A program made the position numbers and the translations under genes. From NCBI RefSeq assembly GCF_017348835.2, contig NZ_CP072315.1: 64,000 nucleotides of DNA; one strand, 5' to 3'. Source of the stretch: Escherichia coli (GTDB taxonomy: Bacteria > Pseudomonadota > Gammaproteobacteria > Enterobacterales > Enterobacteriaceae). Shown in pieces: positions 2,443 to 54,226 of this stretch; position 1 is the stretch's first letter; each line of letters begins with the position of its first letter. The notes beneath the pieces are model-generated. The model saw only the letters and a list, made by a program, of their open reading frames with translations. It ran no database searches and was not told where the DNA came from.

Positions 2443-4227
2443 ATGGGTAAGCCAACAGAAGAGCAAAGACCTGTTATCGAGAATGCTAGCGCAAACAATA
2501 TGGTGATAGCAGCGCCTGGATCAGGCAAATCATTCACCATGATAGAAGCGGTTATATCGATTCTCAAAAAGTATCCATATGCAAGAATCGGGATGGTGAC
2601 CTTTACTCGCGCTGCAACAAACGCACTTGCAGCAAAGTTACAAAAGCGATTGAGCAAGAAGGATCTTGACCGGGTGCTGGTGGATACTTTTCACGGACTC
2701 GTTAAGAAGCAACTGGACATGATTCGCTGGCCGGGAAAGATGTTGATAGGGCCAGCACAGAGATCTGTCATTCACCGGGCTTTGAAAGAATCCGGTGTAA
2801 CGATGAAGTTTGCTGAAGCTGAATTCGTTATTGATGCTATCGGCAGAGAAATGGATACGGATGTGATTTCAGTTCGGCATAACAGACAACAGATCCATTT
2901 ATTTAATACCTATCAGGCGTTATGCCAGAAAGACCATGTGGCGGACCTCAATGCTCTTTCAAAATTTGTTGTCGGTCAAATGCATTCGGGAAAAATGCGC
3001 ACGTTAGATTTGACACATTTGATAGTAGACGAAGTTCAGGATACTGACTCTATACAATTCTCATGGATAGCATTGCATACAAGAGCTGGAGTCTATACGA
3101 GTATAGTTGGAGACGATGATCAGGCCATCTACTCCTTCAGATCCTCAGGAGGAGTCAAAATATTTCAACAGTTTGAAAAACACTTCAGACCTAACATATT
3201 TTACTTAAACACATGCTTTAGGTGTGAACCTGAAATTTTAGAGGTGGCCGGAGCACTGATAGGAAAGAATGTTTACCGTTATGCCAAAGAGTTACGCTCG
3301 GCAAAAAAGGGAGGAGGAAAGGTCACTTTTCGTTCATATGTAGATATGGAGGAACAGATACAGGGTATTTTAAGCCTTATAAATCAGGATCCACATGGAT
3401 GGGCAATTCTAAGCCGCAATAATGCTCACTTGGATGAGCTAGAAAGTTTGATCGAACAGCCAGTAATTCGTTACGGAGGTAAATCATTCTGGGATGAAAA
3501 AGAAACAAGCGATGTGTTAAGCCTTATGGCCTTTTTCCGACAATCAAATGATCCTCGCTTAATGAAGAGAGTATTGGCATTGTTTGGAGAACAGGAATCA
3601 GTTTTGGATGATGTGGCATTGAGTATGAGAGGAAGAAAAGTTACTTTTGGCGACCTTGCCATCCCGGAGGACAGTTCTCTCGAAACAAAAACATTACATT
3701 CAAACTTCGTGCGCTTTACCCAGGAAAGTACTGATAAAGTTGAGATAGCAAAACGTTTCGCCAACCTTACGAAATGGATGGAATCGTCGTCAATCAAGAT
3801 GAGGAGTAATAAAGGTACAGCAACCTTAACAAAAATTGCTTTAGACACTTGTAAACAGTGGGCAGAAAAGACTGGTTGGATGAATATGATCAATCGTGCT
3901 GCTGCAATGTCATTAGGCCCTAGGAAGAAGGACGAGGAATACAGCCCAGAGAAAGTAGTCCTATCAACCTTGCATGGTTCAAAGGGTCTTGAGTGGAATA
4001 AAGTAATAATAATGAGTTGTAATGCGGATCAGATACCAAGTAAAAGATCAGTTGGGGAGGAGGCAATAGAAGAAGAAAGACGTTTGCTTTATGTTGGATT
4101 TACGCGTGCAGAAAAGCAACTTTTTGTAATGTGGTATGGTGACCCTTCTTTCTTTTTAAGAGAATGCAGTGAAGAAAAGATAAAAGAAGCAGCTAATATT
4201 CGAATTTCTCCAGTTTATACAGAATAA
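2443..4227 (+). CDS. UvrD/Rep-type superfamily-1 DNA helicase
   Basis: Walker A AAPGSGKS, DEVQDTD (motif II), VGDDDQAIYSFR, C-terminal LHGSKGLEW and LLYVGFTRA. Confidence 0.85.
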   Translation: MGKPTEEQRPVIENASANNMVIAAPGSGKSFTMIEAVISILKKYPYARIGMVTFTRAATNALAAKLQKRLSKKDLDRVLVDTFHGLVKKQLDMIRWPGKMLIGPAQRSVIHRALKESGVTMKFAEAEFVIDAIGREMDTDVISVRHNRQQIHLFNTYQALCQKDHVADLNALSKFVVGQMHSGKMRTLDLTHLIVDEVQDTDSIQFSWIALHTRAGVYTSIVGDDDQAIYSFRSSGGVKIFQQFEKHFRPNIFYLNTCFRCEPEILEVAGALIGKNVYRYAKELRSAKKGGGKVTFRSYVDMEEQIQGILSLINQDPHGWAILSRNNAHLDELESLIEQPVIRYGGKSFWDEKETSDVLSLMAFFRQSNDPRLMKRVLALFGEQESVLDDVALSMRGRKVTFGDLAIPEDSSLETKTLHSNFVRFTQESTDKVEIAKRFANLTKWMESSSIKMRSNKGTATLTKIALDTCKQWAEKTGWMNMINRAAAMSLGPRKKDEEYSPEKVVLSTLHGSKGLEWNKVIIMSCNADQIPSKRSVGEEAIEEERRLLYVGFTRAEKQLFVMWYGDPSFFLRECSEEKIKEAANIRISPVYTE

Positions 4228-4621
4228 TTCGATATGGGCATTTACTTATGCTTAAAGCTATAGTATAAAAACAATGAGCTTAAATATCAGCTCCCAAATT
4301 TGAGTAACTTTGCTTAAAGTTACTTTCGCGTTAAGCGTTGATTTAGCCGTGAAAAGCGGCCAGCTTAAACAAGCTGTAAGACACCACCGGCAAAATGTCA
4401 CCTTTGTCGCTGGTGCACTTCCCATGCCTGAAAAAGGCAATCTGAATTTACCAAACCGTAACTAATTTAGCTCCTCCTGGAGCTATTTTTGTTGCGTACT
4501 TCTAATGCCAGATAGTATAAATCAGGCGGTTCATAGCTTACGGGAGATGAATGACAGGCTTTGCCTTCGTGTTGAAACAAAAAATTGTTTCTTCCTTCTT
4601 ACTATATATAGGTGACCCCAA

Positions 4622-5494
4622 ATGTCTAAAAATAAAGCTCGCAGTAAAGCCCTTCATCAAACCTTTAGTGAAATTATTCCAGAGATGGATAAGGCGCTAA
4701 ACAAACAGCTCTTAGAAGTTCTGATGAAATATACAGAACGTGATAATGAACTGATTGTTATTTTGAATGAGGACGGCCCAAATATCATTGAACTTAAGTC
4801 TCTTAAGCCTGTGTCTTTGTTGGCCGAAAAGCTTTCTGCTTATTCAAGCTATTATCATGTGGATGTTGTGGAGCTCGTGGTCAAGAAAATTGATTTCGAA
4901 GGAGCTTATAAGCTTCTTAAAGCTTCCCCAGATGTACCACTTTTTAAAAGCTTAACTGAACTGGATAAATATCTTGTTGAGGAGTTTGAAAAATACGGAT
5001 TAAATTCATTTCTTGACGTGGATAATCTGGATTACTCACTTGAAAAAGCCAGTGAACTCAAAAATGAGCAGTTAATAAATTGGGTTTCGGACATCATTTG
5101 CAAACGTGAAAAATTAACTTTACGTAAGCGTTTTGATGTCGCAGTAAAGGCCCACTACGAAAATGTAGAAAAAATGTATGATACCATTCGTCCGTTAATG
5201 AAAAAACTGGGTTTCCCAGAAGATCTCATGACGCACACCTTTAGTGAGTTAAGCGTTTTTGAAACTAAAGGATGGGACCATGCAATAAAATCGAAAATTG
5301 AGACTCTCGCTAAGCGTGAAACTCAATATTTAGATGATGCGGCTAAAGCAGAGAATCGACGTCTTGTAACAGAGAAGTTGGAGAACTCTTTAGCGATTGC
5401 ACCAACTAAACCAACAAGAAATTGGTTACATATTGCCGGAATTGCCTGTTTGGTAGTCTGCACGTTCATGTATGTAACTAATAAATTTATTTAA
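4622..5494 (+). CDS. Hypothetical protein, helical with C-terminal membrane anchor
   Basis: 290-aa ORF; hydrophobic C-terminus IAGIACLVVCTFMYV; upstream RBS-like stretch. Confidence 0.5.
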   Translation: MSKNKARSKALHQTFSEIIPEMDKALNKQLLEVLMKYTERDNELIVILNEDGPNIIELKSLKPVSLLAEKLSAYSSYYHVDVVELVVKKIDFEGAYKLLKASPDVPLFKSLTELDKYLVEEFEKYGLNSFLDVDNLDYSLEKASELKNEQLINWVSDIICKREKLTLRKRFDVAVKAHYENVEKMYDTIRPLMKKLGFPEDLMTHTFSELSVFETKGWDHAIKSKIETLAKRETQYLDDAAKAENRRLVTEKLENSLAIAPTKPTRNWLHIAGIACLVVCTFMYVTNKFI

Positions 5495-5551
5495 TCCTGT
5501 TAAGGGGGAACCCTAACGGGGCTTCTCTTTGAACAAATCGAGGAGCGGAAA

Positions 5552-5929
5552 ATGTCATATCTTGAATATATCAATGAAGTAAAAGTGTCCGGGATAGTTA
5601 TCAGTGCTGTGGAGAAAAAAATGACTGACCAGAGTATAGGTTTGTTAATAAAGCTCAAAAATAGGATGAAGACAGAAGTTGATGGTGAAATCACTGAGAG
5701 AGAATTTTCAGTTCAAATCAAGGTGTCGCCTGAAATGTATTCAACCTGTTTCACTGGTATAAATCAGGGTGATGAGTTGATGGTCTCCGGTTATATTGTT
5801 GTCGATACTATTATGATTGAAGGGAGAGAACATCCTCTTGACTACATGAGAGTGGTAGCAACAAGTAAGTTGGCTCACATACCTAAACCTCTAAAAGGTT
5901 TTGGACAAAGTAGCTTTAATCAGATCTGA
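5552..5929 (+). CDS. Hypothetical protein (125 aa)
   Basis: ORF with GGAG-type RBS upstream; no motif recognised. Confidence 0.45.
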   Translation: MSYLEYINEVKVSGIVISAVEKKMTDQSIGLLIKLKNRMKTEVDGEITEREFSVQIKVSPEMYSTCFTGINQGDELMVSGYIVVDTIMIEGREHPLDYMRVVATSKLAHIPKPLKGFGQSSFNQI

Positions 5930-5949
5930 CATTAAACCCACCCTAAAGG

Positions 5950-5980
5950 GGAGAAATCCCTTCATGGGATTTCTCCTTTT
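5950..5980 (+). terminator. Intergenic hairpin + U-tract (terminator/attenuator-like)
   Basis: GGAGAAATCCC-ttcat-GGGATTTCTCC then TTTT, immediately followed by GGAG and the ATG at 5990. Confidence 0.55.
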
Positions 5981-5989
5981 GGAGTCCCC

Positions 5990-6967
5990 ATGAAACAAAA
6001 ATTTAGGGCTACTGCAATAAGTAGTAATCAACTTAGTTTTTTTTCTATACTCGATATAGATGAAGATGAAATAACGCAAATAGTTGATTCACCCAAAGAG
6101 CATTTAAATGATGCTTACACGTCCGGATTAAACTTTAAATCAGAAGAAAGTAACATTTCTGAGATAAATTATGATTCTGAAAGGCGTGAAAATCACCTTT
6201 ATGAAAAATCCAAATTACTTAAAAATCAGATTTTGCATACAATTAATTTTGCAGCAGAAACAGATTATCTATATACGGTTGAAGAATATAACCCAGATTT
6301 GGGTGGTCTGGTAATAGAATGGACCCCTGAGGATGTGTATGTTGTTTTTCTATCCGCTATGGAAGAGTCTTTGGAAATCATTAAAGAACTAGTGTTGAGG
6401 AGAAAGTTATTCTTCAAAGATGACAATGGTAATATCACAGTGAATCCACTTTTAGAAGCTGAAACACGGTGGTATATGTCAAAATCATTTGAATACACTT
6501 GTTTATGTCATGGACTTGATGCATGTGAATTTAGAGCGGAATTAAAATCATGGCTCTATTATCATTCGCATCGTTCGATTAGTGAAAACACGAAATTAGC
6601 TGAATGCAGGAATGATGATGAAATCATTTTGCATGATTGCAATGACGATATGGGCTGGGACATCTTCTTTGATCAGGATTATTTAATGTCAGAAAAAAAA
6701 CTGGCTGTTAAATGGACTGACAGGGAAATTATGGATGTTTACATAAAAGCTTTTAAATCCACATTAGAGTTGTTTGACGAGCTTGTTTCATGTGATCTGT
6801 TAACTAAACGAAACGCTTTTGGCAAGTTAGAAATCAATCCAATATTCGAAAATCATTTTGAATGGATCATGTCTGAAGCTTTTGAAATAGTGGGAAATCA
6901 TCTTGGTTATAATGTGCCTCAAATCAGGAAACTGATGGCAACTATTTGCCAAATGAATCTCAAATAA
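5990..6967 (+). CDS. Hypothetical protein (325 aa)
   Basis: Long AT-rich ORF with RBS; no motif recognised. Confidence 0.5.
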   Translation: MKQKFRATAISSNQLSFFSILDIDEDEITQIVDSPKEHLNDAYTSGLNFKSEESNISEINYDSERRENHLYEKSKLLKNQILHTINFAAETDYLYTVEEYNPDLGGLVIEWTPEDVYVVFLSAMEESLEIIKELVLRRKLFFKDDNGNITVNPLLEAETRWYMSKSFEYTCLCHGLDACEFRAELKSWLYYHSHRSISENTKLAECRNDDEIILHDCNDDMGWDIFFDQDYLMSEKKLAVKWTDREIMDVYIKAFKSTLELFDELVSCDLLTKRNAFGKLEINPIFENHFEWIMSEAFEIVGNHLGYNVPQIRKLMATICQMNLK

Positions 6968-7024
6968 AATGCCACTGGCAAACATCTGCCAGAGGGCGGT
7001 GTTTGCATTTTACCGGAGTTAAAA

Positions 7025-8083
7025 ATGTCTAATGCCGCTATGAAGTTAAATGAAACATCTTCTGATGCTTATGAAAAATTAGAAGCTCTTCTTTCCCCGG
7101 ATGTTATAAAGTTAAAACATTATGTGGATAAAGGTGAGTATCTTTTAGTTCTAGCAAAGGACCTTTTTGGTATTCCAGAAATGGATCCAAAGATGGCTGT
7201 GCCTGTTTTCAAAACTAAAACCTCGTATCGAGCTCCGCTGAACAAAGACTACATACCAAATCCCCGAATACTTGAACAAGTGGTTAAACTGCTTATCAGT
7301 CCGGATATAGATTTAAGTGTGTGTCTTAAAGGTGAGTCCGGTTCTGGCAAGACTGAAATGGTAATGTACATTAGCCACATGATGAATTGGCCGCTGACAA
7401 TTAAGCAGATCAACAGCAATATTCGAGTTGATGAGCTTGAAGGTGAGCGCAGTCTTAATGGTGGTAATACAGGTTTTGTACACAGCGATTTGGTAACGGG
7501 ATTTCGTAATGGTCACCTCATTCTTCTGGATGAAGTGGACAAAATCGATCCTGATACGGCAGCAAAACTTCACATGCCCATTGAACGTAAGCCCTGGTCA
7601 CTCAGTGCTAATGGTGGTGAGGTTATAACTGCTAATGGCTACACGCGATTTATTGGTACTGCAAACACAAACATGAGTGGAGGCGCTCGCCGGTTCGTTT
7701 CTTCTCAACGTCAAGATGCAGCTTTTATAAAGCGGTTCTTGATAGTTGAAATGGAGAAGCCCGACAAAGTTGCTTTAACCAATGTGCTTACTAAACGATA
7801 TAGCTCTTTGCCTTTTCAGGTCATTGAGAAGTTCGTAAGAGTAGCGATTGCAGTAAATGACTCTGGTACAGAAGACAGTGTGATGGATATTCGTCAATTA
7901 GTAGCTTGGGTTGGCACGTCGATGACGTTAAAAACCTTTAGTCTTCTTGACACTTTCAAAATAGCTTTTGCTTCTGCTTTACCTTTACATGTGGTCGATC
8001 TTGTTCTTCAAGCTATAGATCTTTCTCTTGGCGAAGACAAGGATAAATCGCTGGAGTATTTCACAGCAAAAAAGTCGAGTTAG
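7025..8083 (+). CDS. AAA+ ATPase, MoxR/CobS-like
   Basis: Walker A GESGSGKT, Walker B HLILLDEVDK; size (~350 aa) matches CobS/MoxR-type ATPases. Confidence 0.75.
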   Translation: MSNAAMKLNETSSDAYEKLEALLSPDVIKLKHYVDKGEYLLVLAKDLFGIPEMDPKMAVPVFKTKTSYRAPLNKDYIPNPRILEQVVKLLISPDIDLSVCLKGESGSGKTEMVMYISHMMNWPLTIKQINSNIRVDELEGERSLNGGNTGFVHSDLVTGFRNGHLILLDEVDKIDPDTAAKLHMPIERKPWSLSANGGEVITANGYTRFIGTANTNMSGGARRFVSSQRQDAAFIKRFLIVEMEKPDKVALTNVLTKRYSSLPFQVIEKFVRVAIAVNDSGTEDSVMDIRQLVAWVGTSMTLKTFSLLDTFKIAFASALPLHVVDLVLQAIDLSLGEDKDKSLEYFTAKKSS

Positions 8084-8418
8084 ATGGGATTTGTTATGAA
8101 ACCTCTGATATTTGTATCTCAGAGTTATCCCATCTTGAATTTAGTGCGTTTTTAAGTACGGATGGTGCTGCTACCATTGCTATAGCAAAAAACGGAACTA
8201 ATTTTACTGGACTTATGCAACTGAATAACGACTATTCTTTATTGTTTTATCATGATGGTAAAATAAATATGGAAGGTCTGATTAAACAAATGGAATTAAA
8301 AGGTTATATGTATCAGGGAGCAATGGGCAATGATGATGTTGTTGCTGAGTTTCCCGGTATTCTTTTAATTTCACCAGAGAAGCTTTAATATCAACCCTAT
8401 CGGGAAATCTTTCCCGTT

Positions 8419-8441
8419 GGGGAGGGTTTCCCCTTTTTTTT
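8419..8441 (+). terminator. Intergenic hairpin + U-tract directly upstream of an RBS
   Basis: GGGGA-gggtt-TCCCC followed by an 8-T run, then GGAG and ATG at 8452; an additional CGGGAAA/TTTCCCG hairpin at 8401-8416. Confidence 0.5.
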
Positions 8442-8451
8442 GGAGAAACCC

Positions 8452-9579
8452 ATGACTTTAAATACTTCAATGCTTAACAAAGTATCTGCAAAACAAATCT
8501 CTGAGAATTTTGCAAAATCATATCCAGATTTACTGGAAGGTGCAGTTATAACAAAAATTGAAATAAGTGGCTGTCAAGGATCGCGTCGAACCGATAAAAT
8601 CGATTTGTCTTATGATGGAGATGATATTACGGATCAAAAAAGCGTATCTAAAAGCGAAGTACGCTGGATTGACATAAAAGCCCTTAGCTTCAAAAGTACG
8701 ATTACCAGCAGAATATCAACTCTTTGCTCACGCTTGTGCATCCGCTATAGCAATATGTGGATTTTACCAGTATCCAGTATGGAAGAGTTTCTGGAAGGGG
8801 CCCAAGAGATTGAACGAGAGTTTCAGGCAGGTATTCAAAACGTTGTAGACAATTATGAGATGCATATTGAGGCTGAAAAAAATAGAAGCCCAAGAATGTC
8901 TTCTTTGATTGATCAGTTGAAATTAACTAAAGATGATTTCATAAAATCCTTTAGATTTAATATTGCTCACTTTATTCCTTTTACGCCTATTAGCGTTGAA
9001 GGTGATGAAACCCAGGACTACTATCAGGAACAATTGATAACAGATCTGGCAGAAGAAGCAATGAAGGTTTATGAAAAAATTAGCAAAAATAACAATTTGC
9101 GCTCAAGTACTATTGACCGACTGAAGCAAATGCAAAATAAGATCATTAGCTTCATGTTTATACATAAAGAGGCGGCAGTACTTGCAGAAGCTATAAAACA
9201 CATAATGAATAATTTACCTAAAGGTGCCATTTCTGAACCTCGCGACGTTGCGGTGTTACAGCAGTGGTTTTATTTCATGAGTGATGCTTCAATGTTAAAG
9301 CGTATTATTTCAGGAGAGCAAAAGGTTACTGACTGGTTGGAATCTATTACCAGATCATTTAATCAAAGCTCACAAACAGAACCGAACGCGCTACAGAACA
9401 CAGGTATTGAAGCTATTTTAGATTCAACAAATGTGTTCCAGGTTGAACCTGTCGTAGAGAACGATATAAATAACAGCACGTTTTCAAACACTGATCCTGT
9501 AGCTGAACCTGAGAAATCAGTTTCGCAACAGGAAGACAATGTTGAAAATGGTTTTGATATCGAGCTCAAAGGCTGGTAA
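8452..9579 (+). CDS. Hypothetical protein (375 aa)
   Basis: Track ORF starts at TTG 8440; ATG at 8452 has a GGAG RBS. No motif recognised. Confidence 0.5.
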   Translation: MTLNTSMLNKVSAKQISENFAKSYPDLLEGAVITKIEISGCQGSRRTDKIDLSYDGDDITDQKSVSKSEVRWIDIKALSFKSTITSRISTLCSRLCIRYSNMWILPVSSMEEFLEGAQEIEREFQAGIQNVVDNYEMHIEAEKNRSPRMSSLIDQLKLTKDDFIKSFRFNIAHFIPFTPISVEGDETQDYYQEQLITDLAEEAMKVYEKISKNNNLRSSTIDRLKQMQNKIISFMFIHKEAAVLAEAIKHIMNNLPKGAISEPRDVAVLQQWFYFMSDASMLKRIISGEQKVTDWLESITRSFNQSSQTEPNALQNTGIEAILDSTNVFQVEPVVENDINNSTFSNTDPVAEPEKSVSQQEDNVENGFDIELKGW

Positions 9580-9599
9580 CTGTTTGCTTTATTAAAAAC

Positions 9600-9641
9600 C
9601 CCAGATGGGTACTTCACCATCTGGGTGAGTACCCCTTTTTT
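9600..9641 (+). terminator. Intergenic hairpin + U-tract
   Basis: CCCAGATGG-(8 nt)-CCATCTGGG stem, then ACCCC and TTTTTT, 16 nt before the ATG at 9657. Confidence 0.55.
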
Positions 9642-9656
9642 ATAAAGAGGTATTCT

Positions 9657-11669
9657 ATGAAATTAGATCTTAAATCATCACCGCGCCATATTAAGCGTTT
9701 ACAGAATATAGCAAAAGTCATTAGCGGCTTAGGCGATGTAAGAGTTGTAATAGACGACAATACCAAAGGACCGTATTTTGATCCTGTAAATAAAGTTTGT
9801 GTTTTACCAAACGGCGATTATAGCGATGATGACTTTGTCAGTCTGATTGAAGGTTTTACCTGTCATGAAGCTGGTCATGGTCGCTATACCGACAGCGAGG
9901 TTTACAGTGACGCCTTTAATAGTGTTCTCAAGTCATCTGAAGGGTTTACACGCTTCGATGACGGAATGAATGCAGAGTTTGAGAGCCTCGCTGAGAAACG
10001 TAAAGCTTATAGCAGGGCAAAACGTCTTACCGGGCTTATAAATCTGTTCGATGATGTACAGATGGAAGAGAAGGTTGGTAACGATTATCCGGATGCAAAG
10101 CGGCGGCTTGCAGCCACTTACGCACTGATGGTTAAAGCCGGAAGGATGACTCCTGATATATCTTCTCGTCCGGAAAATCCTGTCCTATTTATTGAGTGGT
10201 ATCTGCTTAACTCATTGCGAGTAAAAGTCCTTCAGCAGGCAGGTCACAAAGAAACACTCGATCCGTTTTTTGACTATGCCCAAAAGATACTTTCTCCAGT
10301 AATTTCTGATGTTGAGGAAATTTTTCATGATGCTCTTGGTTGTGAAAATACTCAGGGCTGTGAATCCCTTGCTCGTAAGACCCTGGCTCTTTTAGAGAGA
10401 CTGCGGGATGAGGCAAGGGAACAACAGCAGCAGACAGAGCAGGAGGAGCAGGAGGCATATGATGAATCCGAGACCGATACCGATACCGATACCGAATCAG
10501 AAGATAAATCGCTTGAGTCGACTGATAGTCGTGAGGATGATTCTGAGGACGATAGTGAAGGTCAGGCAGATACTTCCGATAACTCTGATCTTGCTCAAGA
10601 GGGATGTTCTGAGCCTTCAGAACTTGCTGAAGATAACGAGGGAAATAATGAACCCACCGGTGGCAATCCCACAGGTGATAACATTATTGAAGACGATACT
10701 GATGCGATTAACCCTTCCGAGAGTGAATCAGATGAAGCCAGTTCGACTAACGTTGAAGATGAAAGTAACTTTTCATCGGCTCAATGGGAGATACTGGCAG
10801 ATTTGTTGGATGCCTTTCTTGGCAGTGATGAGGATAGCGAAGATTATCACGATGCTTTGGCTAAAGAGATTGAAGGTATTGCATCAAAAGTATCCGATGA
10901 CGTGAAAGCCGAATTCGGTGCTTCTGAATGGGATATCCCTGATCTCCTTATCGATTTGAATGTTTACAATGAGGCTTTGTCTCTGAGTCATTCAATCGGT
11001 AGCGACTTGTCTGTTTTACAGCAGGTTAAAATGCGTGGCCGAAACAAAACTCATGAGCGTGGAATTACCTTCGATGGAAATCGATTAATTCTGTCACCAA
11101 TGGGAGTTCGTGATGTCTTCAGAGCTCAAAGCGAATCTAAAAATAGAGGGCATGTTGGCCTCGTATTAGTTCGTGATATTTCAGCGTCAATGGCTAATGA
11201 TGAAAGATATATTCATGCCATTAAGTCAGATCTTGCTTTATCGATGGCCGCTGAAAGTTTGTCAAAAATGCATGTCTCCAATATAGTCTTTCCCTTCAAG
11301 GAAAGTGAATTTGAGATTATCAAAACGTTTGATCAAAGCGTTGAGGAATCTCTATCGAAATTCACTCTTGGATGTAAGGGTTATTATACCCCTACGGGAT
11401 CGGCTTTAATGGCAGCTGTTGATCTGTTACTTGACAGCCAATTCGATAGGAAAATAATTTTTCTTATAACTGATGGTTATCCGAATAAATCGGAATTTAC
11501 TATCGGCGAAGTTATGGAAAAGGCTAAATGTAATGGAATAGAAATCGTTGGTGTTGGTATTAAGACTGATGAAATAATTGGTTTTGAAACGGACACTTTC
11601 GTAACAGTTGATGATACTTCTTTATTGTCTATTGAAGTCAGTAAGCTAGTTCATCAAATACTTTCTTAA
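9657..11669 (+). CDS. vWA-domain protein, CobT-like, with acidic linker and N-terminal HExxH motif
   Basis: C-terminal vWA with MIDAS DISAS and ITDG; central highly acidic D/E/S/T-rich segment; HEAGH at residues 70-74. Architecture resembles CobT, the usual partner of CobS-like ATPases. Confidence 0.7.
   Translation: MKLDLKSSPRHIKRLQNIAKVISGLGDVRVVIDDNTKGPYFDPVNKVCVLPNGDYSDDDFVSLIEGFTCHEAGHGRYTDSEVYSDAFNSVLKSSEGFTRFDDGMNAEFESLAEKRKAYSRAKRLTGLINLFDDVQMEEKVGNDYPDAKRRLAATYALMVKAGRMTPDISSRPENPVLFIEWYLLNSLRVKVLQQAGHKETLDPFFDYAQKILSPVISDVEEIFHDALGCENTQGCESLARKTLALLERLRDEAREQQQQTEQEEQEAYDESETDTDTDTESEDKSLESTDSREDDSEDDSEGQADTSDNSDLAQEGCSEPSELAEDNEGNNEPTGGNPTGDNIIEDDTDAINPSESESDEASSTNVEDESNFSSAQWEILADLLDAFLGSDEDSEDYHDALAKEIEGIASKVSDDVKAEFGASEWDIPDLLIDLNVYNEALSLSHSIGSDLSVLQQVKMRGRNKTHERGITFDGNRLILSPMGVRDVFRAQSESKNRGHVGLVLVRDISASMANDERYIHAIKSDLALSMAAESLSKMHVSNIVFPFKESEFEIIKTFDQSVEESLSKFTLGCKGYYTPTGSALMAAVDLLLDSQFDRKIIFLITDGYPNKSEFTIGEVMEKAKCNGIEIVGVGIKTDEIIGFETDTFVTVDDTSLLSIEVSKLVHQILS
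10473..10493 (+). repeat. In-frame hexanucleotide tandem repeat (ACCGAT) x3.5 encoding TDTDTDT
   Basis: accgataccgataccgatacc read directly in the acidic linker of the vWA gene. Confidence 0.6.
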
Positions 11670-11685
11670 TAAACTCTACCCAATC

Positions 11686-11712
11686 GGGGCAAAAGGCCCC
11701 GGTGGGTCTTTT
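11686..11712 (+). terminator. Intergenic hairpin + U-tract
   Basis: GGGGC-aaaag-GCCCC then GGTGGGTCTTTTT, downstream of the 11669 stop. Confidence 0.5.
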
Positions 11713-11740
11713 TGCTCCATGAAGGAATAAGGAGCAAAAT

Positions 11741-11962
11741 ATGACTCAGATAAAAACTTACCGTGTAGAACATGAAAAAGTCGGTGCGATGCATAAAGTC
11801 CGTATTTTCGGACGTGTTGGTGAAGTTATAAGCAATGATAGCCCTCAGGAAAGAATCTTCCGCGAAGTCACTATAGCGGAGGGTAATAGCCAGCAGGCTG
11901 CGTTACTTGTAGATAACTACATACAGTGTCTTGAGAATAATGGCTTCACGACTGAAGCATAA
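11741..11962 (+). CDS. Hypothetical small protein (73 aa)
   Basis: ORF with AAGGAG-like RBS (aataaggagcaaaatATG) and its own downstream terminator. Confidence 0.45.
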   Translation: MTQIKTYRVEHEKVGAMHKVRIFGRVGEVISNDSPQERIFREVTIAEGNSQQAALLVDNYIQCLENNGFTTEA

Positions 11963-11967
11963 ATGTT

Positions 11968-11991
11968 GAGGGCCCCCGGGCCCTCTTTCTT
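11968..11991 (+). terminator. Intrinsic terminator
   Basis: GAGGGCCC-cc-GGGCCCTC perfect stem followed by TTTCTT. Confidence 0.55.
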
Positions 11992-12075
11992 AAATTCTGC
12001 GTTGTGGGTTTCTCCCTGTCTTCTGCACCGCAGAAGGCATTGAGAAACTCACAATGCCAGATAAGAGAGATCATC

Positions 12076-13308
12076 ATGACTTATGCATCCCCGGCTCTTC
12101 GTCGTAATCCACAGGAAGTATCTGAACACTTTATTAAACTCGTTCATGCTCGAATTGCTGAAGTGTCTGGCTGGAAGTATATATTCGAAAGAATACCTGC
12201 TTTCAAAGACGCTTGTGCAAAAGCCCCGAGCCAGGTTCCTTGCCCGTTTACTGGCGCAGGGAAATCGAAGTTTCGTTTCCGACAAAAAGACCTTTATACC
12301 GGATGTGCGATCCATAATGACTTTCCGGTAAATGAGTTTTGCGACGGAATTGATGTTCTGGCGAAATATTATGAATTAAGTAAAACGCAGACTTGCAAAA
12401 AGATTCTCTCAGATTTTTTCGGGATGGATCTGCATGCTCCGTTAACTGACGCCGACATTGAAAATGAACGACGCTATAAATCAGCAGTTCGTGCCACAGA
12501 AACTCTTGACCGAGAGGAAGTGGCAAAGCGAATGCGAAAACTTGATGTGATGTATCACTATACCGGTGAAATCAAGCCTAATACTCCTGTTGCTTTGTAC
12601 CTCCGTAATCGTGGGATCTCCCGCTTACTGAGTCACTTACCAAAGGATTTAGGCTTTAATAACCGGATCTACTATTGGGATAAAGATAAGCAGAAATCGA
12701 TTATCTATCCGGGAATGATTGCGATCTATCGTGACACCCGAGGTCGGCCTCTGACTATTCATAGAACATACGTAGACAAAAATGGTGATAAGGCACCTGT
12801 AGAAAATCCAAAGCTGATGATGAAGCCTCCTGCCGATATGACAGGTGGCTCAATTCAGTTGTTTGACCCTCACTATGATTCAGGTAGTTCGACCTGGACA
12901 CTGGGAGTGGCTGAAGGGATCGAGAACGCGCTTTCTGTTGTAGAAGCGACTTCAACACCATGCTGGGCAGCCAGCTCCGCATGGTGCCTTGAAAACGTTA
13001 CTGTTCCTGATTTTTTACTGCCTCCGCCGGATGTAAAATCTATAAACTTTTATATCTGGGCGGATAAGGATATTGCTAACTCACAAGGCACTCGTGCCGG
13101 TATTGAAGCTGCTCAGCGACTTCAAAGCCGCATGGTTGAGTTTTTGGCTAAACGATATCCCGCATCAAAGCTGACAATTGAAGTCTTCGAACCAGCACAA
13201 GATATTCCTGATGGGAAAAAGGGTATCGACTGGAACGATGTTCTCCAGTTAACAGGGCAGGATGGATTCCCGATTCACTGGGCTCCTGAATGTCTTAATC
13301 AGCTGTAA
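12076..13308 (+). CDS. Toprim-domain DNA primase-like protein
   Basis: Toprim signature (conserved Glu in LGVAEGIENALS, DxD in YIWADKD), N-terminal Cys cluster (VPCPFTG, CAIHNDF) suggesting a zinc-binding region. ATG at 12076 has an AAGAGAGA RBS; track start 12004 is GTG without RBS. Confidence 0.55.
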   Translation: MTYASPALRRNPQEVSEHFIKLVHARIAEVSGWKYIFERIPAFKDACAKAPSQVPCPFTGAGKSKFRFRQKDLYTGCAIHNDFPVNEFCDGIDVLAKYYELSKTQTCKKILSDFFGMDLHAPLTDADIENERRYKSAVRATETLDREEVAKRMRKLDVMYHYTGEIKPNTPVALYLRNRGISRLLSHLPKDLGFNNRIYYWDKDKQKSIIYPGMIAIYRDTRGRPLTIHRTYVDKNGDKAPVENPKLMMKPPADMTGGSIQLFDPHYDSGSSTWTLGVAEGIENALSVVEATSTPCWAASSAWCLENVTVPDFLLPPPDVKSINFYIWADKDIANSQGTRAGIEAAQRLQSRMVEFLAKRYPASKLTIEVFEPAQDIPDGKKGIDWNDVLQLTGQDGFPIHWAPECLNQL

Positions 13309-13339
13309 CAACGATAACTCCCCCGCTTTTTGCGGGGGG

Positions 13340-13387
13340 GGTTATCTTATCAATATTATATTTTAAAATTGTATTGATAAGATAACC
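13340..13387. repeat. Perfect 16-bp inverted repeat with 16-nt AT-only spacer
   Basis: GGTTATCTTATCAATA - ttatattttaaaattg - TATTGATAAGATAACC, directly after a CCCCCGC/GCGGGGG hairpin (13320-13338) downstream of the primase-like gene. Confidence 0.75.
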
Positions 13388-13578
13388 GCTTTCCTTCGTG
13401 ATAATTACCTGCCTTTAAGGTCTTTTCACGGCTGAGATGCTTGCTCAGTTAAATAAATGTGCGGTACTACTGGCTATGGTCGGTTGTATGACATGGTTAT
13501 TCCATAAACTATTAAAACCCATAACGGGAGTATTACCGTTATGGTGATGCTCGTCGTTTTACATCGGAGAGCATTTTA

Positions 13579-14100
13579 ATGAATTTTCAAATTAACGAAG
13601 TTTTTAATAAATTTGCTGCTGTTATAAAATCGCGCATCGTCAATGAACCATCGTCATGCTATTTGCTGCATGATAATGAGATAGATATAACGATTTTGAA
13701 ACATAGCATATTAGAAAATGACAGAAACCTGTTGTACGTAGTTCGTCCTTCAGGAACGTGTTTGTTGCGTTGTGACAAATATTTCTATCCGAAATATTAT
13801 CTTCGTTGCCGTGGAGATTATAAGTCATTCATATATGTCCATCTTGATCTACATAGTGGTGAAGCTAAAGAAATCACATGGGAGCAAGCAGACGATATGC
13901 TGTCTAGTCCAGGAAAACCCCCATTAAAAGGGAATCTTGGACGATTTGAGTATATAAAAGTTGTGGTTGAGGACCTTCGTATTCGAGGTTACGCTGATTA
14001 TCTTCCTGCGTATAATCTTGATGACCTTCGCCGTTTTGCCTTACAGGACGACCGCCCATCCCTTGTCAGATACATTGACAATGTCATGGCAACGGTCTGA
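13579..14100 (+). CDS. Hypothetical protein (173 aa)
   Basis: ORF with RBS (cggagagcattttaATG); no motif recognised. Confidence 0.45.
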   Translation: MNFQINEVFNKFAAVIKSRIVNEPSSCYLLHDNEIDITILKHSILENDRNLLYVVRPSGTCLLRCDKYFYPKYYLRCRGDYKSFIYVHLDLHSGEAKEITWEQADDMLSSPGKPPLKGNLGRFEYIKVVVEDLRIRGYADYLPAYNLDDLRRFALQDDRPSLVRYIDNVMATV

Positions 14101-14178
14101 TTGATTGCTAATTGATTTACATATTTTCCCTGATGGCCAACCTGCATCAGGGAGGCCTCAATAACGAATGGAGGCTGT

Positions 14179-15057
14179 ATGAAGTTAGCTACGGACCTGG
14201 TAAAAGCTATTTTGATTAGAAATGGCGTTGAACCAGTAAATATAAGCGAATCATCTAAGTTATCTTTGAAACAACCACTGACAGAACTTAAATTCAGTTT
14301 ATATTTGCGAACTGAGCATTTATCTCACTTCCTACCCGGTTATGTTTATTCTATAAAAGAATGTCCACTGTCATATGACATCGGGATCGAAATTCAGAAA
14401 ATCTTCGAAAGTTTACATTTGTTAAACGAAGAATTTGAATCCCTCGGTTTTGTTTCTGTATGGATAGAAATGCATCAAAGCATTTTTGAACAAAGTCGGT
14501 TTAAGAAAAGTAACTTTACTTTTCGGGAGGAAGAGGTCGAGCTTGCTAAAGGGCTTGTTTGTTCTCACAATTCACAAATAAGTAATGCGGCTTATTTCTG
14601 GCTTCAGCACTTTGAGGAGTTTATGATTTATGTTCGTAATAAGCTTATCGACCTCTTTCGAGAGGCCTATGACCTGATCCTTGGAATGCAGCAAGTATTT
14701 TTCATTCGGGAAAAGGAAGAGCTGTTGAAAACTATAAGTTATGGCGATGAGCTGTATGAGGTGAAATTCATGGCGGCTGAGCTTTACTCTATCGAACAGA
14801 ACTTAAAGTGTTCTGAATCGATAAGTACAAAATCTCAAGCTTCGGCATATATTAACCGCATCCGTGAGTTTGTGCGTTCGGGGTGGAGGCAGGGCTATAT
14901 AGTCTGCCATCATAAGCGAAGTAATCAAATTTCATCATTGTCATTACCGATGTACTTGAAAGATACGTCAGGCCGAAGTGCTCGAAAGCGAGTAAAACGT
15001 CTTATATCTTCTACAGTTTGTGGTAGAAATAAAGATTTAGGTCTTACAGATTTTTAA
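14179..15057 (+). CDS. Hypothetical protein, member 1 of a tandem array of ~300-aa genes
   Basis: 292 aa; same size class and N-terminal pattern as the next four genes; own RBS (ggaggctgtATG). Confidence 0.5.
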   Translation: MKLATDLVKAILIRNGVEPVNISESSKLSLKQPLTELKFSLYLRTEHLSHFLPGYVYSIKECPLSYDIGIEIQKIFESLHLLNEEFESLGFVSVWIEMHQSIFEQSRFKKSNFTFREEEVELAKGLVCSHNSQISNAAYFWLQHFEEFMIYVRNKLIDLFREAYDLILGMQQVFFIREKEELLKTISYGDELYEVKFMAAELYSIEQNLKCSESISTKSQASAYINRIREFVRSGWRQGYIVCHHKRSNQISSLSLPMYLKDTSGRSARKRVKRLISSTVCGRNKDLGLTDF

Positions 15058-40543: not shown

Positions 40544-40865
40544 TTTTTTTAATTATCCGGAACGCCATGCAAATTTATGATTGAGAAGTGAGTCTATGAG
40601 TGTCTACGCTACATGTCAATCATAATATGATTAATAACTTCAGTGGTTATGGAGTGCGTCAGTGTTTTTTTAGTGCCTTATAACGTATTGATATTTAAAT
40701 TAAAAATAGAAAAATGAACACCATGAAAAGGATTTATTTTTGTGTTTTTGAAGAAAACTACCAAAATTTCCCTTGTCAGAGAACTTCATCATGATATGAT
40801 TTTCTTCGTCAGTTACTAAATATACCTTTGATTGTCTCGGTCATTACCATTTTAAGGAATAAAAC

Positions 40866-41447
40866 ATGGTTTCATTAAGTAAGAACCAGACGGTATCACT
40901 CAGCAAAGAATCTTCAGCATTAAGCCAGCTTCAATTCGGTCTCGGTTGGGATCCGGTTAAGAAAAAAGGTCTTCTTGGAGGATTGTTTGGAGGCAACGAC
41001 TCAATCGATCTCGATGCTGGCTGCGTATTAATGGACAGCACCGGTAAAACAATTGACACCATCTGGTTCCGCAAACTGGAATCCACCTGCGGCGCTGTTG
41101 TGCACAGTGGCGATAACCTGACCGGTGAGGGTGACGGTGACGATGAGGTGATTAAGGTCAACCTCTCCCGACTGCCTGCAAACGTTGAATACCTGGCGTT
41201 TACGGTAAACAGCTTCCGTGGTCAGTCGTTCAATGACGTCGAAAACGCGTTCTGCCGCGTTGTCGATCAAACCGGCAAAGAGCTGGCTCGCTACAAGCTG
41301 ACTGAGCAGGGCTCACATACCGGGATCGTTATTTCTTCGCTGCGCCGTAATAACGGCAACTGGGACTTTACCGCCCTTGGCCATGCCTGTCGCGGCCGCA
41401 CAATTGACGATATGCACTCCGATATCGTTTCAGCGGTTATTCGCTAA
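40866..41447 (+). CDS. terZ: Tellurite resistance protein TerZ (TerD family)
   Basis: MVSLSKNQTVSLSK..., [20 protein letters not shown]; first gene of terZABCDEF. Confidence 0.85.
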   Translation: MVSLSKNQTVSLSKESSALSQLQFGLGWDPVKKKGLLGGLFGGNDSIDLDAGCVLMDSTGKTIDTIWFRKLESTCGAVVHSGDNLTGEGDGDDEVIKVNLSRLPANVEYLAFTVNSFRGQSFNDVENAFCRVVDQTGKELARYKLTEQGSHTGIVISSLRRNNGNWDFTALGHACRGRTIDDMHSDIVSAVIR

Positions 41448-42604
41448 TGAACCTGACGCCGGGGGGCAATGCCCCCGTTCCAGCCCAGGAGTTGCGGGTC
41501 CGGATCACCTCGGGCGGCCAGGTGGATGCTTCGGCGTTTCGCCTGTATGCCGACGGGAAGGTGCAGGGTGATGCGGACATGGTGTTTTATGGTCAGCCAC
41601 GTAACGATGATGGTACCGTCAGCCTGGTCAGTGAAGGCCAGTACTCAACCTTTACTGTCGCGCTCAACCGGCTGAAACCTGATGTCCAGAAAATTGCGTT
41701 CACCGTGACCTGTGACGGTGGGCAGACGGTGTCCGGTCTTCGTAATCTTTCCATCGACGTGGAGCAAGGGGCTACCGGCCTGGTTAGCGGCAGTGTCGAA
41801 CTGAGCGGCCGTCAGGAAGCAGCCTTAATTCTGGGTGAATTTTACCGTCGTAATAATGACTGGAAATTCCGCTTCGTTGCGCAGGGGTTCAACGGTGGAC
41901 TTAAACCGCTGGCAGAGCATTTCGGCGTAAATATTGCCGACGAACCGGCTCCCGCAGCCCCGACTCCTCCGGTTGTAACCCCTCCGCCAGTTGAGACAAA
42001 AATCAGCCTGAGCAAGGTATCGCTGACAAAAGAGAAGCCTGCAATCAGCCTGACCAAACGGGATAACTTCGGTGAAATCCGGATCAACCTGAACTGGCAC
42101 CGGGGCAGCGGCAAATCAGGCTTTGCAGGCATGTTCGGCTCCAAAGGAATCGACCTGGATCTGGGGGCCTTTGTTGAGCTTCAGGACGGGTATAAATCGG
42201 TCATTCAGGCGCTCGGTAATGCATTCGGTAATTATCGCGATGAACCGTATGTTCAGCTCAAGGGCGATGACCGGACGGGTGATGTATCAGACGGCGAGTG
42301 GCTGCATATCAATGGACGTGAATGGAAGCATATCCGCGAAGTGCTGATTTACGCCTTTATTTATGAAGGTGTTCCCAGCTGGGACAAGACTGATGGTGTG
42401 GTCACCATTCATGTGCCGGATCAACCGCCCATTGAGACCCGCCTGACCGAAGGTGAAAACCGTCGCACATTGTGCGCCATTGCCAGACTCGTAAACGAAA
42501 ACGGCGCAATTAAAGTCGAGCGAATTAACCAGTACTTCAAAGGCCAGGACGAAATGGACCGGGCATTTGGCTGGGGATTTCGCTGGAGCGCCGGTTCTAA
42601 ATAA
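41447..42604 (+). CDS. terA: Tellurite resistance protein TerA (TerD-domain containing)
   Basis: 385 aa, start overlapping terZ stop (TAATG); proline-rich linker PAAPTPPVVTPPPVE between TerD-like halves. Confidence 0.85.
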   Translation: MNLTPGGNAPVPAQELRVRITSGGQVDASAFRLYADGKVQGDADMVFYGQPRNDDGTVSLVSEGQYSTFTVALNRLKPDVQKIAFTVTCDGGQTVSGLRNLSIDVEQGATGLVSGSVELSGRQEAALILGEFYRRNNDWKFRFVAQGFNGGLKPLAEHFGVNIADEPAPAAPTPPVVTPPPVETKISLSKVSLTKEKPAISLTKRDNFGEIRINLNWHRGSGKSGFAGMFGSKGIDLDLGAFVELQDGYKSVIQALGNAFGNYRDEPYVQLKGDDRTGDVSDGEWLHINGREWKHIREVLIYAFIYEGVPSWDKTDGVVTIHVPDQPPIETRLTEGENRRTLCAIARLVNENGAIKVERINQYFKGQDEMDRAFGWGFRWSAGSK

Positions 42605-42626
42605 CACAGCAACAAAGGAAACAGGT

Positions 42627-43082
42627 ATGAGCTTTTTCGACAAGGTAAAAGGTGCCATTAACTCTGGCCGGGACGAACTGACCCGCCAGGTTGGTCGTTT
42701 CAAAAACAAAAAATTTATGCACGGCACCGTTGCTGTATGTGCCCGTATTGCCGTATCGAGTGACGGCGTGAGTTCGGAAGAAAAGCAGAAAATGATGGGC
42801 TTTCTTCGCTCTTCAGAAGAGCTGAAGGTCTTCGATACCAATGAGGTGATCGAGTTCTTCAATAAACTGGTTTCAAGCTTCGATTTCGATGTTGAAATCG
42901 GCAAGGGCGAAACCATGAAATACATCCTGGCGCTGAAAGATCAGCCTGAGGCCGCTCAGCTGGCCTTACGTGTTGGTATTGCCGTTGCGAAAAGTGACGG
43001 TAACTTCGATCAGGACGAGAAACTGGCCTCCCGCGAGATCGCTATCGCGTTGGGCTTCGACCCGGCTGAATTTGGCCTCTGA
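42627..43082 (+). CDS. terB: Tellurite resistance protein TerB
   Basis: 151 aa from ATG 42627 (RBS AAAGGAAACAGG); MSFFDKVKGAINSG N-terminus; track start is an RBS-less upstream extension. Confidence 0.85.
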   Translation: MSFFDKVKGAINSGRDELTRQVGRFKNKKFMHGTVAVCARIAVSSDGVSSEEKQKMMGFLRSSEELKVFDTNEVIEFFNKLVSSFDFDVEIGKGETMKYILALKDQPEAAQLALRVGIAVAKSDGNFDQDEKLASREIAIALGFDPAEFGL

Positions 43083-43104
43083 TCCACATCCCTAAGGGTA
43101 AAAT

Positions 43105-44145: not shown

Positions 44146-44193
44146 TCCCCTGAAGTGTTAACCTGAACAATTACTAATCGAAGAGGTTATTTT

Positions 44194-44772
44194 ATGAGTG
44201 TTTCTCTTTCCAAAGGCGGGAACGTCTCCCTGAGTAAAGCAGCTCCGTCAATGAAAAACGTCCTGGTGGGCCTTGGCTGGGATGCGCGTTCAACAGACGG
44301 TCAGGACTTTGACCTGGATGCTTCAGCATTCCTGCTGGCCGCAAATGGCAAAGTGCGCGGCGATTCAGATTTCATCTTCTATAACAACCTGACGTCATCT
44401 GACGGTTCCGTAACCCATACCGGTGATAACCGTACCGGTGAAGGTGATGGTGATGATGAATCGCTGAAAATTAAACTGGACGCCGTCCCGTCTGATGTTG
44501 ACAAGATCATCTTCGTTGTCACTATCCATGATGCTCAGGCTCGTCGCCAGAGCTTTGGTCAGGTATCCGGTGCGTTTATTCGCCTGGTCAATGACGATAA
44601 CCAGACTGAAGTCGCTCGCTACGATCTGACCGAAGATGCGTCCACTGAGACTGCCATGCTGTTCGGCGAGCTGTATCGCCACAATGGTGAGTGGAAATTC
44701 CGCGCAGTGGGCCAGGGTTATGCTGGTGGTCTGGCATCTGTATGTGCTCAGTACGGCATTAACGCGTCCTGA
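44194..44772 (+). CDS. terD: Tellurite resistance protein TerD
   Basis: 192 aa, [35 protein letters not shown]. Confidence 0.9.
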
Positions 44773-44839
44773 TCGAAAAGTAACTTTTCACCCGGGGCTG
44801 TTAATGCAGCCCTCATTCAACTGTTTGCAGGAGCTAAAA

Positions 44840-51595: not shown

Positions 51596-51655
51596 CAGCC
51601 GCAATTTATAGTGTGCATGTTTTCAGAATAGCTGATGTAAGCGTGAGGATTCAGT

Positions 51656-51862: not shown

Positions 51863-51963
51863 CAGCTGTCGGTCTGGGGGTGAAAACGTATTCTTCATTC
51901 AGCGAATTCCCAGGCTTCACATTAAGACTAAAGCGGCGGCCGCAGTAACGTAAGAGAAAATAA

Positions 51964-52374: not shown

Positions 52375-52386
52375 GAAGAGATCAAG

Positions 52387-54183: not shown

Positions 54184-54226
54184 GTTGGAGTCATTACCGG
54201 AGAATTGTATCATTAACAGTCTAGTT

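Follow-up and report, generated by a model that had tools for sequence, protein, structure and literature searches.

A CobS-like ATPase, a DUF3150 protein and a CobT-like adaptor with a conserved HExxH motif are encoded together in the IncHI2 plasmid backbone

The window analyzed here is a 64-kb stretch of an IncHI2 plasmid. Its positions 7025-11669 hold three genes, referred to below as the trio, that encode a CobS-like AAA+ ATPase, a protein of the DUF3150 family and a CobT-like protein with a von Willebrand factor A (vWA) domain. The original prediction, made from the letters of the window alone, had described an ATPase with the motifs GESGSGKT and LLDEVD, a gene for 375 amino acids (aa), and a 670-aa protein in which HEAGH and DISAS are separated by an acidic linker. 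All of these were read in the sequence, at the following positions:

7025-8083, + strand: CobS-like, MoxR-class AAA+ ATPase (motor), 352 aa; Pfam AAA_5, E-value 9.2e-28
7331-7354, + strand: Walker A motif GESGSGKT (K109), read from the translation
7523-7540, + strand: Walker B motif LLDEVD (D169, E170), read from the translation
8452-9579, + strand: DUF3150 protein, 375 aa with the ATG at 8452 as start (379 aa with the TTG at 8440); proposed third subunit, docking partner or client
9385-9576, + strand: disordered acidic C-terminal tail of the DUF3150 protein, ending ...ELKGW; predicted local distance difference test (pLDDT) <50 at residues 312-373
[quoted passage not shown]
9657-10418, + strand: M48-like zincin N-domain, aa 1-254
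9864-9878, + strand: HEAGH, residues 70-74 (H70, E71, H74), invariant in 55 relatives
10053-10067, + strand: D133...E137 of an N-x-x-(E/D)-D-x-x-x-E motif; D133 invariant, E137 at least 90% conserved
10419-10856, + strand: disordered acidic linker, aa 255-400, with 54 D/E and 2 K/R in 146 residues
11139-11666, + strand: vWA domain; Pfam VWA, E-value 7.8e-07
11175-11189, + strand: MIDAS motif DISAS, residues 507-511 (D507, S509, S511), invariant in 55 relatives

The best matches of the ATPase among PDB structures were the AAA modules of midasin (7e-21) and NorQ (1.8e-09), and CobS was matched at 2.3e-08, in good agreement with the MoxR/CobS-like assignment that had been made from the motifs. 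The phage 'CobS' family PHROG 249 was matched at 2.5e-30. The score against the NCBIfam CobS equivalog TIGR01650 was 34.4 bits and did not reach the cut-off of 558.55. In a set of 15 ATPases, drawn from trios, from phage pairs and from true CobS, G103, G106, G108, K109 and E170 were invariant and D169 was nearly so. N214, R237 and R290 were likewise invariant in this set; by their position they would be sensor 1, the arginine finger and sensor 2. With every catalytic residue kept, the ATPase is predicted to be catalytically intact.

Relatives of the 670-aa protein, hereafter the adaptor, were collected with an exhaustive representative search using its N-domain, which returned 79 relatives. 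Word-indexed searches with the vWA protein or with DUF3150 found almost only IncHI-type relatives, and the distant ones came from N-domain and profile searches. HE..H at position ~60-100 was present in 55 of the 58 full-length relatives, and a D-x-S-x-S motif in 56. In an alignment of 55 sequences with 17-43% (mostly ~20%) identity to the query, the invariant positions were P51, H70, E71, H74, D133, D507, S509, S511, M512, D606 and G607, and E137 was nearly invariant (≥90%). The invariance of H70, E71, H74, D133, D507, S509 and S511 at such low identity indicates that the motifs did not arise by chance, and conservation of the HExxH residues among homologues, on which the original prediction had depended, is thus borne out. 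Pfam CobT matched 38 of the 55 relatives and Pfam VWA 48, and the linkers of relatives were acidic or consisted of D-x-S-x-S repeats. A profile of the adaptor family matched Brucella CobT (PDB 9uka_G) over its full length with an E-value of 1.9e-37, as expected from the predicted kinship to CobT, and also matched CobT_C, NorD and other vWA structures.

The HExxH site is kept in the IncC plasmid protein vcrx095 (HEAAH), in the phage-plasmid SSU5 (HEVAH) and in phage ICP2 (HECYH). In contrast, D-A/S-x-A-L stands in place of HExxH in all four genuine CobTs examined, that of Brucella and the cobS-adjacent ones of Cereibacter, Pandoraea and Sphingomonas, and in the latter three HExxH was found nowhere else either. 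At the second motif, most mobile-element proteins have (E/D)-D-x-x-x-E, whereas ICP2 has V-D-x-x-x-E and genuine CobT has E-x-A-R-x-E. In an AlphaFold2 model of adaptor residues 1-258 (pLDDT 96.5), a three-stranded sheet is followed by the HExxH helix and then by a long helix (residues 111-143) that carries D133 and E137, of which E137 is a candidate third zinc ligand. A Foldseek comparison of the N-domain model with the PDB returned nothing significant, from a PDB set that evidently held no CobT structures, and the fold matches of the N-domain to proteases were weak. The structural support for a protease site is only moderate, and given the Foldseek result the case for an active site is carried mainly by the conservation pattern. 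In zincins, the glutamate of HExxH is not a metal ligand. The invariance of E71 therefore argues for catalysis over metal binding alone, and we describe the 670-aa protein as a CobT homologue in which a predicted zinc-protease site is retained.

The gene between the two had been given a length of 375 aa, which stands, and had been called unknown, which does not: it is a member of Pfam DUF3150 (PF11348; E-value 3.8e-23 over residues 32-266), and in conjugative elements it is the constant third member of the module. Its structural model (pLDDT 81 overall, >90 in the core) consists of a small sheet and helical bundles with a disordered tail at residues 312-373, and no relative was found among the solved structures searched. 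Only F124, K230 and P256 were invariant across 42 diverse DUF3150 members, hence the protein does not look like an enzyme. Of 69 full-length relatives, 68 have W or F as their last residue (...GLW, ...TWF, ...KGW), preceded by a disordered and mostly acidic stretch, and this aromatic-ended tail lies outside the coverage of the Pfam model. Four proteins of the IncC operon region, read from the plasmid pNDM-116-17 (L010, 8947-14080), combine an acidic stretch with an aromatic C-terminus: vcrx090 (...EQEDHFF), Bet (...EGSYY), Exo (...ETFYW) and DUF3150 (...DDDGDYFF). Such tails recall the C-terminal tip of the single-stranded DNA-binding protein SSB. The four IncC proteins may share one docking site, and the tail of DUF3150 is probably a docking peptide. 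In phages, tblastn against 50,697 INPHARED phage records found no DUF3150, and a comparison of 11 DUF3150 proteins with PHROG gave no credible match (one weak match to a minor head protein, at 0.0034, was disregarded).

The trio belongs to the IncHI2 backbone and was 100% identical in plasmids of E. coli, Salmonella, Enterobacter and Klebsiella. The trio region was matched by 1402 plasmid records, of which 1105 covered at least 80% of it and 1114 matched at ≥99% identity. One of these plasmids, pSTM6-275, is collinear with positions 1-52189 of the window at 99.95-99.99% identity, and has a relaxase of the MOBH class and a mating apparatus of the MPF_F type. Beyond IncHI2, the AAA_5, DUF3150 and CobT-like genes were found together in all nine conjugative-type or island loci that were opened:

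L002: Klebsiella IncHI1B/FIB plasmid; nearby helicase, Toprim, Tus
L003: Aeromonas plasmid; nearby helicase, Toprim, small ferredoxin
L004: marine metagenome-assembled contig; nearby UvrD-type helicase, Toprim, small ferredoxin
L006: Geothermobacter hydrogeniphilus genome contig; nearby SSB, RecT, integrase
L008: Pseudodesulfovibrio chromosome; nearby ERF, integrases, type I restriction-modification (R-M)
L009: metagenome contig; nearby TraH, SSB, RecT, RadC
L010: IncC plasmid; nearby traN, ssb, bet, exo
L011: metagenome contig; nearby SSB, PDDEXK nuclease
L012: metagenome contig; nearby UvrD-type helicase, SSB, Toprim

The phages ICP2 (L007, 4969-7842) and SSU5 (L013, 3405-7083), in contrast, carry only the CobT-like and CobS-like pair, next to genes for DNA polymerase, primase, helicase or ligase, and their annotation as 'cobT/cobS' or 'porphyrin biosynthesis' genes is probably wrong. 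That ATPase-vWA pairs recur in plasmids and phages had been part of the original prediction and agrees with these loci. The trees of the ATPase and the adaptor from 15 loci were congruent (distance correlation r = 0.86). In both trees genuine CobST grouped with the ICP2 pair, apart from the clades that bear DUF3150, and SSU5 joined this group in the ATPase tree only. Physical linkage alone could yield such congruence, so that it supports an interaction of the two proteins but does not prove it. Taken together, we consider it highly probable that the trio is a conserved three-part module and not a chelatase.

The relatives on IncC plasmids offer the closest view of a function. In L010 the gene order is traN ... 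AAA, a 302-aa protein, ssb, bet, exo, DUF3150 and VWA, corresponding to vcrx089-vcrx095 of pVCR94. The IncHI2 ATPase is 27% identical to vcrx089 (E-value 2e-26), the DUF3150 protein 19% identical to vcrx094 (3e-4), and the CobT-like vWA protein 22% identical to vcrx095 over 641 residues (2e-23). The trio ATPases of L006, L008 and L009 are 46-49% identical to vcrx089. This ATPase, with AAA_5 and CbbQ_C domains, acts with vcrx090 in the evasion of the type I R-M system of V. cholerae; the defect of the mutants was gone in an hsdR-deleted recipient, complementation worked in the recipient only, and vcrx087-vcrx094 form a single transcript (Roy et al. 2020, PMC7498323). On pKAZ3 lacking vcrx089-90, restriction by EcoBI rose 424-fold and that by EcoKI 906-fold (Dimitriu et al. 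2024, PMC11602122), and AntiDefenseFinder lists 'vcrx089_090' as an anti-defence system. The statement in the original prediction that such pairs have no assigned function thus no longer holds for one relative, the IncC ATPase.

A structural template for the module is given by the cobaltochelatase CobSTN, whose motor, adaptor and effector are CobS, CobT and CobN, respectively; the N-domain of CobT resembles peptidase M48C and binds the small subdomain of CobS, a segment of CobT enters the CobS ring, and CobN binds the far side of CobT (bioRxiv 10.64898/2026.07.21.739949). In the reading that we favour, and to which we give an even chance, the trio is an ATP-driven motor-adaptor module of MOBH/MPF_F conjugative backbones that serves establishment or restriction evasion in the recipient. 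By homology with CobSTN, the AAA_5 protein would form a hexameric motor, the N-domain of the adaptor would sit on the lid subdomain of this motor, the adaptor segment before the vWA domain would insert into the ring or pore, and a third protein or client would lie at the vWA/MIDAS face. There the MIDAS would grip an acidic residue or carboxylate of the client, and DUF3150 would occupy the place of CobN, with its acidic, aromatic-ended tail as the likely docking element. The HExxH...E zinc site of the adaptor would, speculatively, cut the client or at least hold a peptide in its cleft. The module would act in the recipient just after DNA entry and aid plasmid establishment, most likely by neutralizing type I restriction as shown for vcrx089 of IncC. 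The polyanionic 146-residue linker and the acidic tails might further act as a DNA-like bait; ArdA and Ocr, which are DNA mimics, are the model for this speculation.

We infer complex formation, proteolysis and the role of the tail from homology and conservation, and the parts of this reading differ in strength. A role in defence evasion or establishment in the recipient, argued by analogy with IncC, falls a little short of an even chance, and proteolysis as part of the mechanism is doubtful. A bolder version would make the module a split AAA+ protease, found in conjugative elements and, in two-gene form, in phages: a CobS-like unfoldase and an adaptor combining a MIDAS hook, a polyanionic linker and an active M48-like protease would destroy host defence proteins, foremost type I restriction complexes, or strip them from incoming DNA, with DUF3150 and vcrx090 as parts that plug in and CobT as a protease-less derivative. 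ClpXP-dependent restriction alleviation works by degradation of HsdR, and a plasmid analogue of this process would be consistent with the bias of the IncC phenotype towards type I systems. We consider this version improbable as a whole.

Several observations weigh against the favoured reading. The IncC phenotype was mapped to vcrx089 and vcrx090 (PMC7498323), and a homologue of vcrx090 was absent from the window and from all other trio loci by tblastn. By this comparison vcrx090 looks lineage-specific, and DUF3150 and the adaptor emerge as the universal partners of the ATPase. The transposon sequencing (TnSeq) in the same study compared Cas+ with Cas- recipients, both apparently with type I R-M (PMC7498323), and is therefore silent on a part of vcrx094 and vcrx095 in restriction evasion. 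The identity of the IncHI2 ATPase to vcrx089 is only 27%, in a family where vcrx089 is itself 29-32% identical to genuine CobS, and no CbbQ_C domain was detected in the IncHI2 protein with Pfam. In SXT, deletions in the corresponding region (s067, s068, s070) changed transfer between isogenic strains by no more than 10-fold. Nor is the trio obviously part of an early-entering leading region: mobI and the MobH relaxase gene lie at 192395-196770 of pSTM6-275 and the trio at 40638-45282, more than 120 kb apart, and oriT (the origin of transfer) is probably near the former, so any early action in the recipient would not be owed to proximity to oriT. Finally, any function of the trio in IncHI2 would be an extrapolation by analogy. 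In the full-text literature searched, vcrx094 appeared only as a primer site for reverse-transcription PCR and vcrx095 nowhere, and neither a mechanism for vcrx089 nor DUF3150 in an anti-restriction context was found.

Two other readings keep the motor-adaptor architecture and assign it a different task. The module could be an accessory of establishment or replication, remodelling or clearing SSB, relaxase, primase or nucleoid proteins on the incoming strand or the replisome and so helping second-strand synthesis, recombination or the start of replication. The neighbours speak for it: TrhI helicase lies upstream and a Toprim primase and Tus downstream in IncHI2, other trio loci have UvrD-type helicases, SSB, RecT or ERF, exonuclease and Toprim genes, the phage pairs adjoin replication genes, and DUF3150 and several IncC host-defence-evasion (hde) proteins have SSB-like acidic tails with an aromatic end. 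However, the one known phenotype of a relative is lost when the recipient lacks hsdR, which points to defence and not to general establishment, the SXT deletions cost at most 10-fold in transfer, and none of the three proteins has a recognizable DNA-binding domain; we therefore hold this reading to be rather unlikely. The alternative in which the module remodels without cutting is somewhat stronger, though still on the unlikely side. Here HExxH would be a structural metal or peptide site, and a client held by the MIDAS would be pulled as in CbbQO, NorQD and CobST. Such a reading would be in keeping with the weak fold matches to proteases, with genuine CobT, which shows that the domain can serve as a pure docking module, and with the description of CobST, NorQD, CbbQO and RavA-ViaA as motor-adaptor remodellers and not proteases (bioRxiv 10.64898/2026.07.21.739949). 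It leaves unaccounted for that E71, which is no ligand, is as conserved as both histidines at ~20% identity, and that it is exactly the HExxH residues that are lost in the known non-protease lineage, the chelatases.

The remaining explanations are much less probable. Viral cobST have been proposed as auxiliary genes for cobalamin synthesis (PMC8651126), and by sequence homology to CobS and CobT the trio proteins might likewise be genuine chelatase subunits that borrow a host CobN to raise cobalamin. This is extremely unlikely given a score of 34 against 558 bits on the NCBIfam CobS model, an adaptor that keeps a protease motif absent from all four genuine CobTs examined, a constant partner that is DUF3150, and a setting of DNA metabolism and conjugation. 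No open reading frame (ORF) of at least 700 aa lies wholly in the window, which thus holds no complete CobN-sized gene, and the full annotation of pSTM6-275 lists neither cob nor cbi genes; the original prediction, which had seen no cobalamin gene and considered a chelatase role unlikely, is thereby upheld. To our knowledge cobN is absent from E. coli, and Salmonella follows the route through CbiK. A defence system against phages or rival plasmids would not be without precedent, since MoxR-vWA conflict systems exist, the ATPase weakly matches DolB and IetA in PADLOC (E-value 2e-4 or worse), and one relative (L008) adjoins a type I R-M system. Yet these PADLOC matches concern the generic P-loop, and none was obtained for DUF3150 or the vWA protein, for which reason we reject this reading as quite improbable; moreover, the trio is not accompanied by a toxic effector such as a nuclease or a pore, its genes sit in fixed backbone beside tra genes in two plasmid families rather than in variable islands, and the IncC relative serves the incoming plasmid against host defence. 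A chaperone that helps to assemble the type IV secretion or pilus apparatus of the neighbouring trh genes would explain why the trio lies directly downstream of trhW-trhU-trhN in both IncHI2 and IncC, but it is very improbable: vcrx089-090 of IncC are needed in the recipient and not in the donor, relatives are also carried by phages and by islands that have no mating-pair genes next to them, and deletion of the SXT ATPase gene s070 cut transfer by 10-fold at most.

The wider gene neighbourhood is the same in pSTM6-275, where trhF, a trbC-like gene, trhU, trhN, a reverse-strand hypothetical gene, the TrhI helicase gene and three hypothetical genes precede the AAA gene, so that the trio follows trhU-trhN-trhI. 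After the AAA gene come a small ORF, DUF3150, VWA, a 73-aa ORF and a Toprim protein, and Tus follows ~9 kb beyond this primase-like gene. The corresponding features of the window are:

4622-6967, + strand: three co-directional genes upstream (290, 125 and 325 aa); context only
8215-8388, + strand: small ORF of 57 aa between the ATPase and the middle gene, WP_001176647.1 in RefSeq pSTM6-275
8402-8432, + strand: terminator-like hairpin of 14 pairs followed by T8, just upstream of the DUF3150 start; from a consensus scan
11741-13308, + strand: 73-aa ORF and Toprim-domain primase-like gene; context only; PHROG 510 DNA primase, 1.7e-27

The order of the three upstream genes is kept in the Klebsiella IncHI1B plasmid, and their proteins had no Pfam, NCBIfam or PHROG match. 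A guess that the 125-aa protein is SSB-like found no support, the Pfam search being empty. In the 325-aa protein (5990-6967), residues 111-308 and 242-312 aligned to residues 61-258 and 61-131 of the Klebsiella IncHI1B counterpart, and these two offset matches suggest an internal repeat. The 57-aa ORF (8215-8388) had no homologue in the other trio loci compared. Toprim genes also adjoin the trio in L002, L003, L004 and L012. Small redox proteins or proteins related to ribonucleotide reductases recur near it as well, namely a 2Fe-2S ferredoxin in L003 (13803-14027) and L004 (7281-7523), a TSCPD-domain protein in L006 (11208-11606) and a 57-aa NRDD-like fragment in L009 (11750-11923).

Terminator-like hairpins were enriched across positions 3500-14500 of the window, with 21 found and 7.3 ± 2.9 in shuffled sequences. 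They occur in nearly every intergenic gap of the co-directional block (for example at 8402-8432, 11683-11703, 11968-11985 and 13318-13340) and could be attenuators or read-through terminators. Among eight IncHI2 plasmids compared, several that are otherwise identical have the trio region broken by an insertion sequence (IS903B, IS1B, IS3 or IS1203, ISApl1), which indicates that the genes are dispensable for plasmid maintenance in the laboratory or the clinic. The IS1203 copy of pSTM6-275 (record positions 51651-52864) is absent from the window at 17999. Positions 52190-55918 of the window diverge from pSTM6-275, after which the window matches a distant part of that plasmid (DUF4942, DUF1173, cytosine methyltransferase). 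Between ~27100 and 47100 the G+C fraction rises from ~0.37-0.45 to ~0.50-0.55; collinearity with pSTM6-275 identifies this stretch as the tellurite-resistance (ter) cluster, whose own vWA proteins (two of ~210 aa beside a TerY-C protein and one of 413 aa) are unrelated to the trio.

Motors of the MoxR/CobS type that work with a vWA adaptor were already known, as was the anti-restriction activity of one relative. The literature searched held no prior description of a three-gene unit containing DUF3150 or of its presence in IncHI plasmids, of a zincin motif kept in the CobT-like proteins of mobile elements and lost in genuine CobT, or of the aromatic C-terminal tail of DUF3150. The present analysis adds the universal partners of the vcrx089-type ATPase, namely DUF3150 and a CobT-like adaptor whose zinc-protease motif is intact. 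Among the major vehicles of multidrug resistance are IncHI2 and IncC plasmids (pSTM6-275 has tet(A), blaTEM-1 and sul3 as well as genes for resistance to silver and copper), and the host range of such plasmids is set by how they pass restriction barriers. If the favoured reading is true, many 'cobS/cobT' or 'porphyrin biosynthesis' genes of phages and plasmids would have to be relabelled, away from vitamin-B12 metabolism, and the motor-adaptor part of the aerobic cobalt chelatase would share its origin with a machine of mobile elements, with the protease site lost in one and retained in the other.

Among known systems, the class I cobaltochelatase CobSTN shares with the trio a homologous AAA+ motor and the logic of motor, adaptor and third protein, and CobT shares the layout of M48-like N-domain, acidic linker and vWA/MIDAS domain. 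The differences are that the trio is set in a conjugative plasmid without CobN or a cobalamin pathway, that DUF3150 is unrelated to CobN, that the trio ATPase scores far under the curated CobS cut-off, and that the adaptor has HExxH in place of D-A/S-x-A-L and a linker of 146 residues where that of CobT has ~90. The MoxR-class remodellers (CbbQ-CbbO, NorQ-NorD, RavA-ViaA, midasin) likewise combine an AAA_5-type motor with a MIDAS vWA adaptor, but they act on metabolic enzymes or on factors of ribosome assembly, they have no DUF3150, and the summary of their adaptors in the CobSTN preprint attributes a protease site to none of them (bioRxiv 10.64898/2026.07.21.739949). The 'cobS/cobT' genes of phages and phage-plasmids (ICP2, the SSU5 family, cyanophages) belong to the same two families and lie beside replication genes, and HExxH is kept in the CobT-like proteins of ICP2 and SSU5; they differ in the order, CobT before CobS, in that DUF3150 was not found, and in that the literature annotates them as cobalamin genes.

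The M48 peptidases and other gluzincins (Ste24, HtpX, BepA, BlaR1) resemble the adaptor in an HExxH helix that follows a three-stranded sheet and in a conserved glutamate on a later helix. Ste24, HtpX and BlaR1 are membrane proteins, whereas the adaptor of the trio is soluble and has its zincin domain fused to a vWA domain. The parallel with ClpXP restriction alleviation and with FtsH-type AAA-zincin proteases is purely an analogy of mechanism, in that an unfoldase and a protease together could remove a type I subunit; there is no homology to ClpX, ClpP or FtsH, and in the trio the motor and the putative protease are separate chains that would be bridged by the vWA adaptor. The hde pair vcrx089-vcrx090 of IncC and SXT has a homologous ATPase. 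It lies at the same site downstream of traW-traU-traN in a MOBH/MPF_F element, and in IncC the operon region also contains genes for DUF3150 and for an HExxH-vWA protein. IncHI2 differs in lacking vcrx090, the ssb-bet-exo genes between ATPase and DUF3150, and a detectable CbbQ_C domain in the ATPase, and the published vcrx089_090 system is defined as two genes where the module described here has three.

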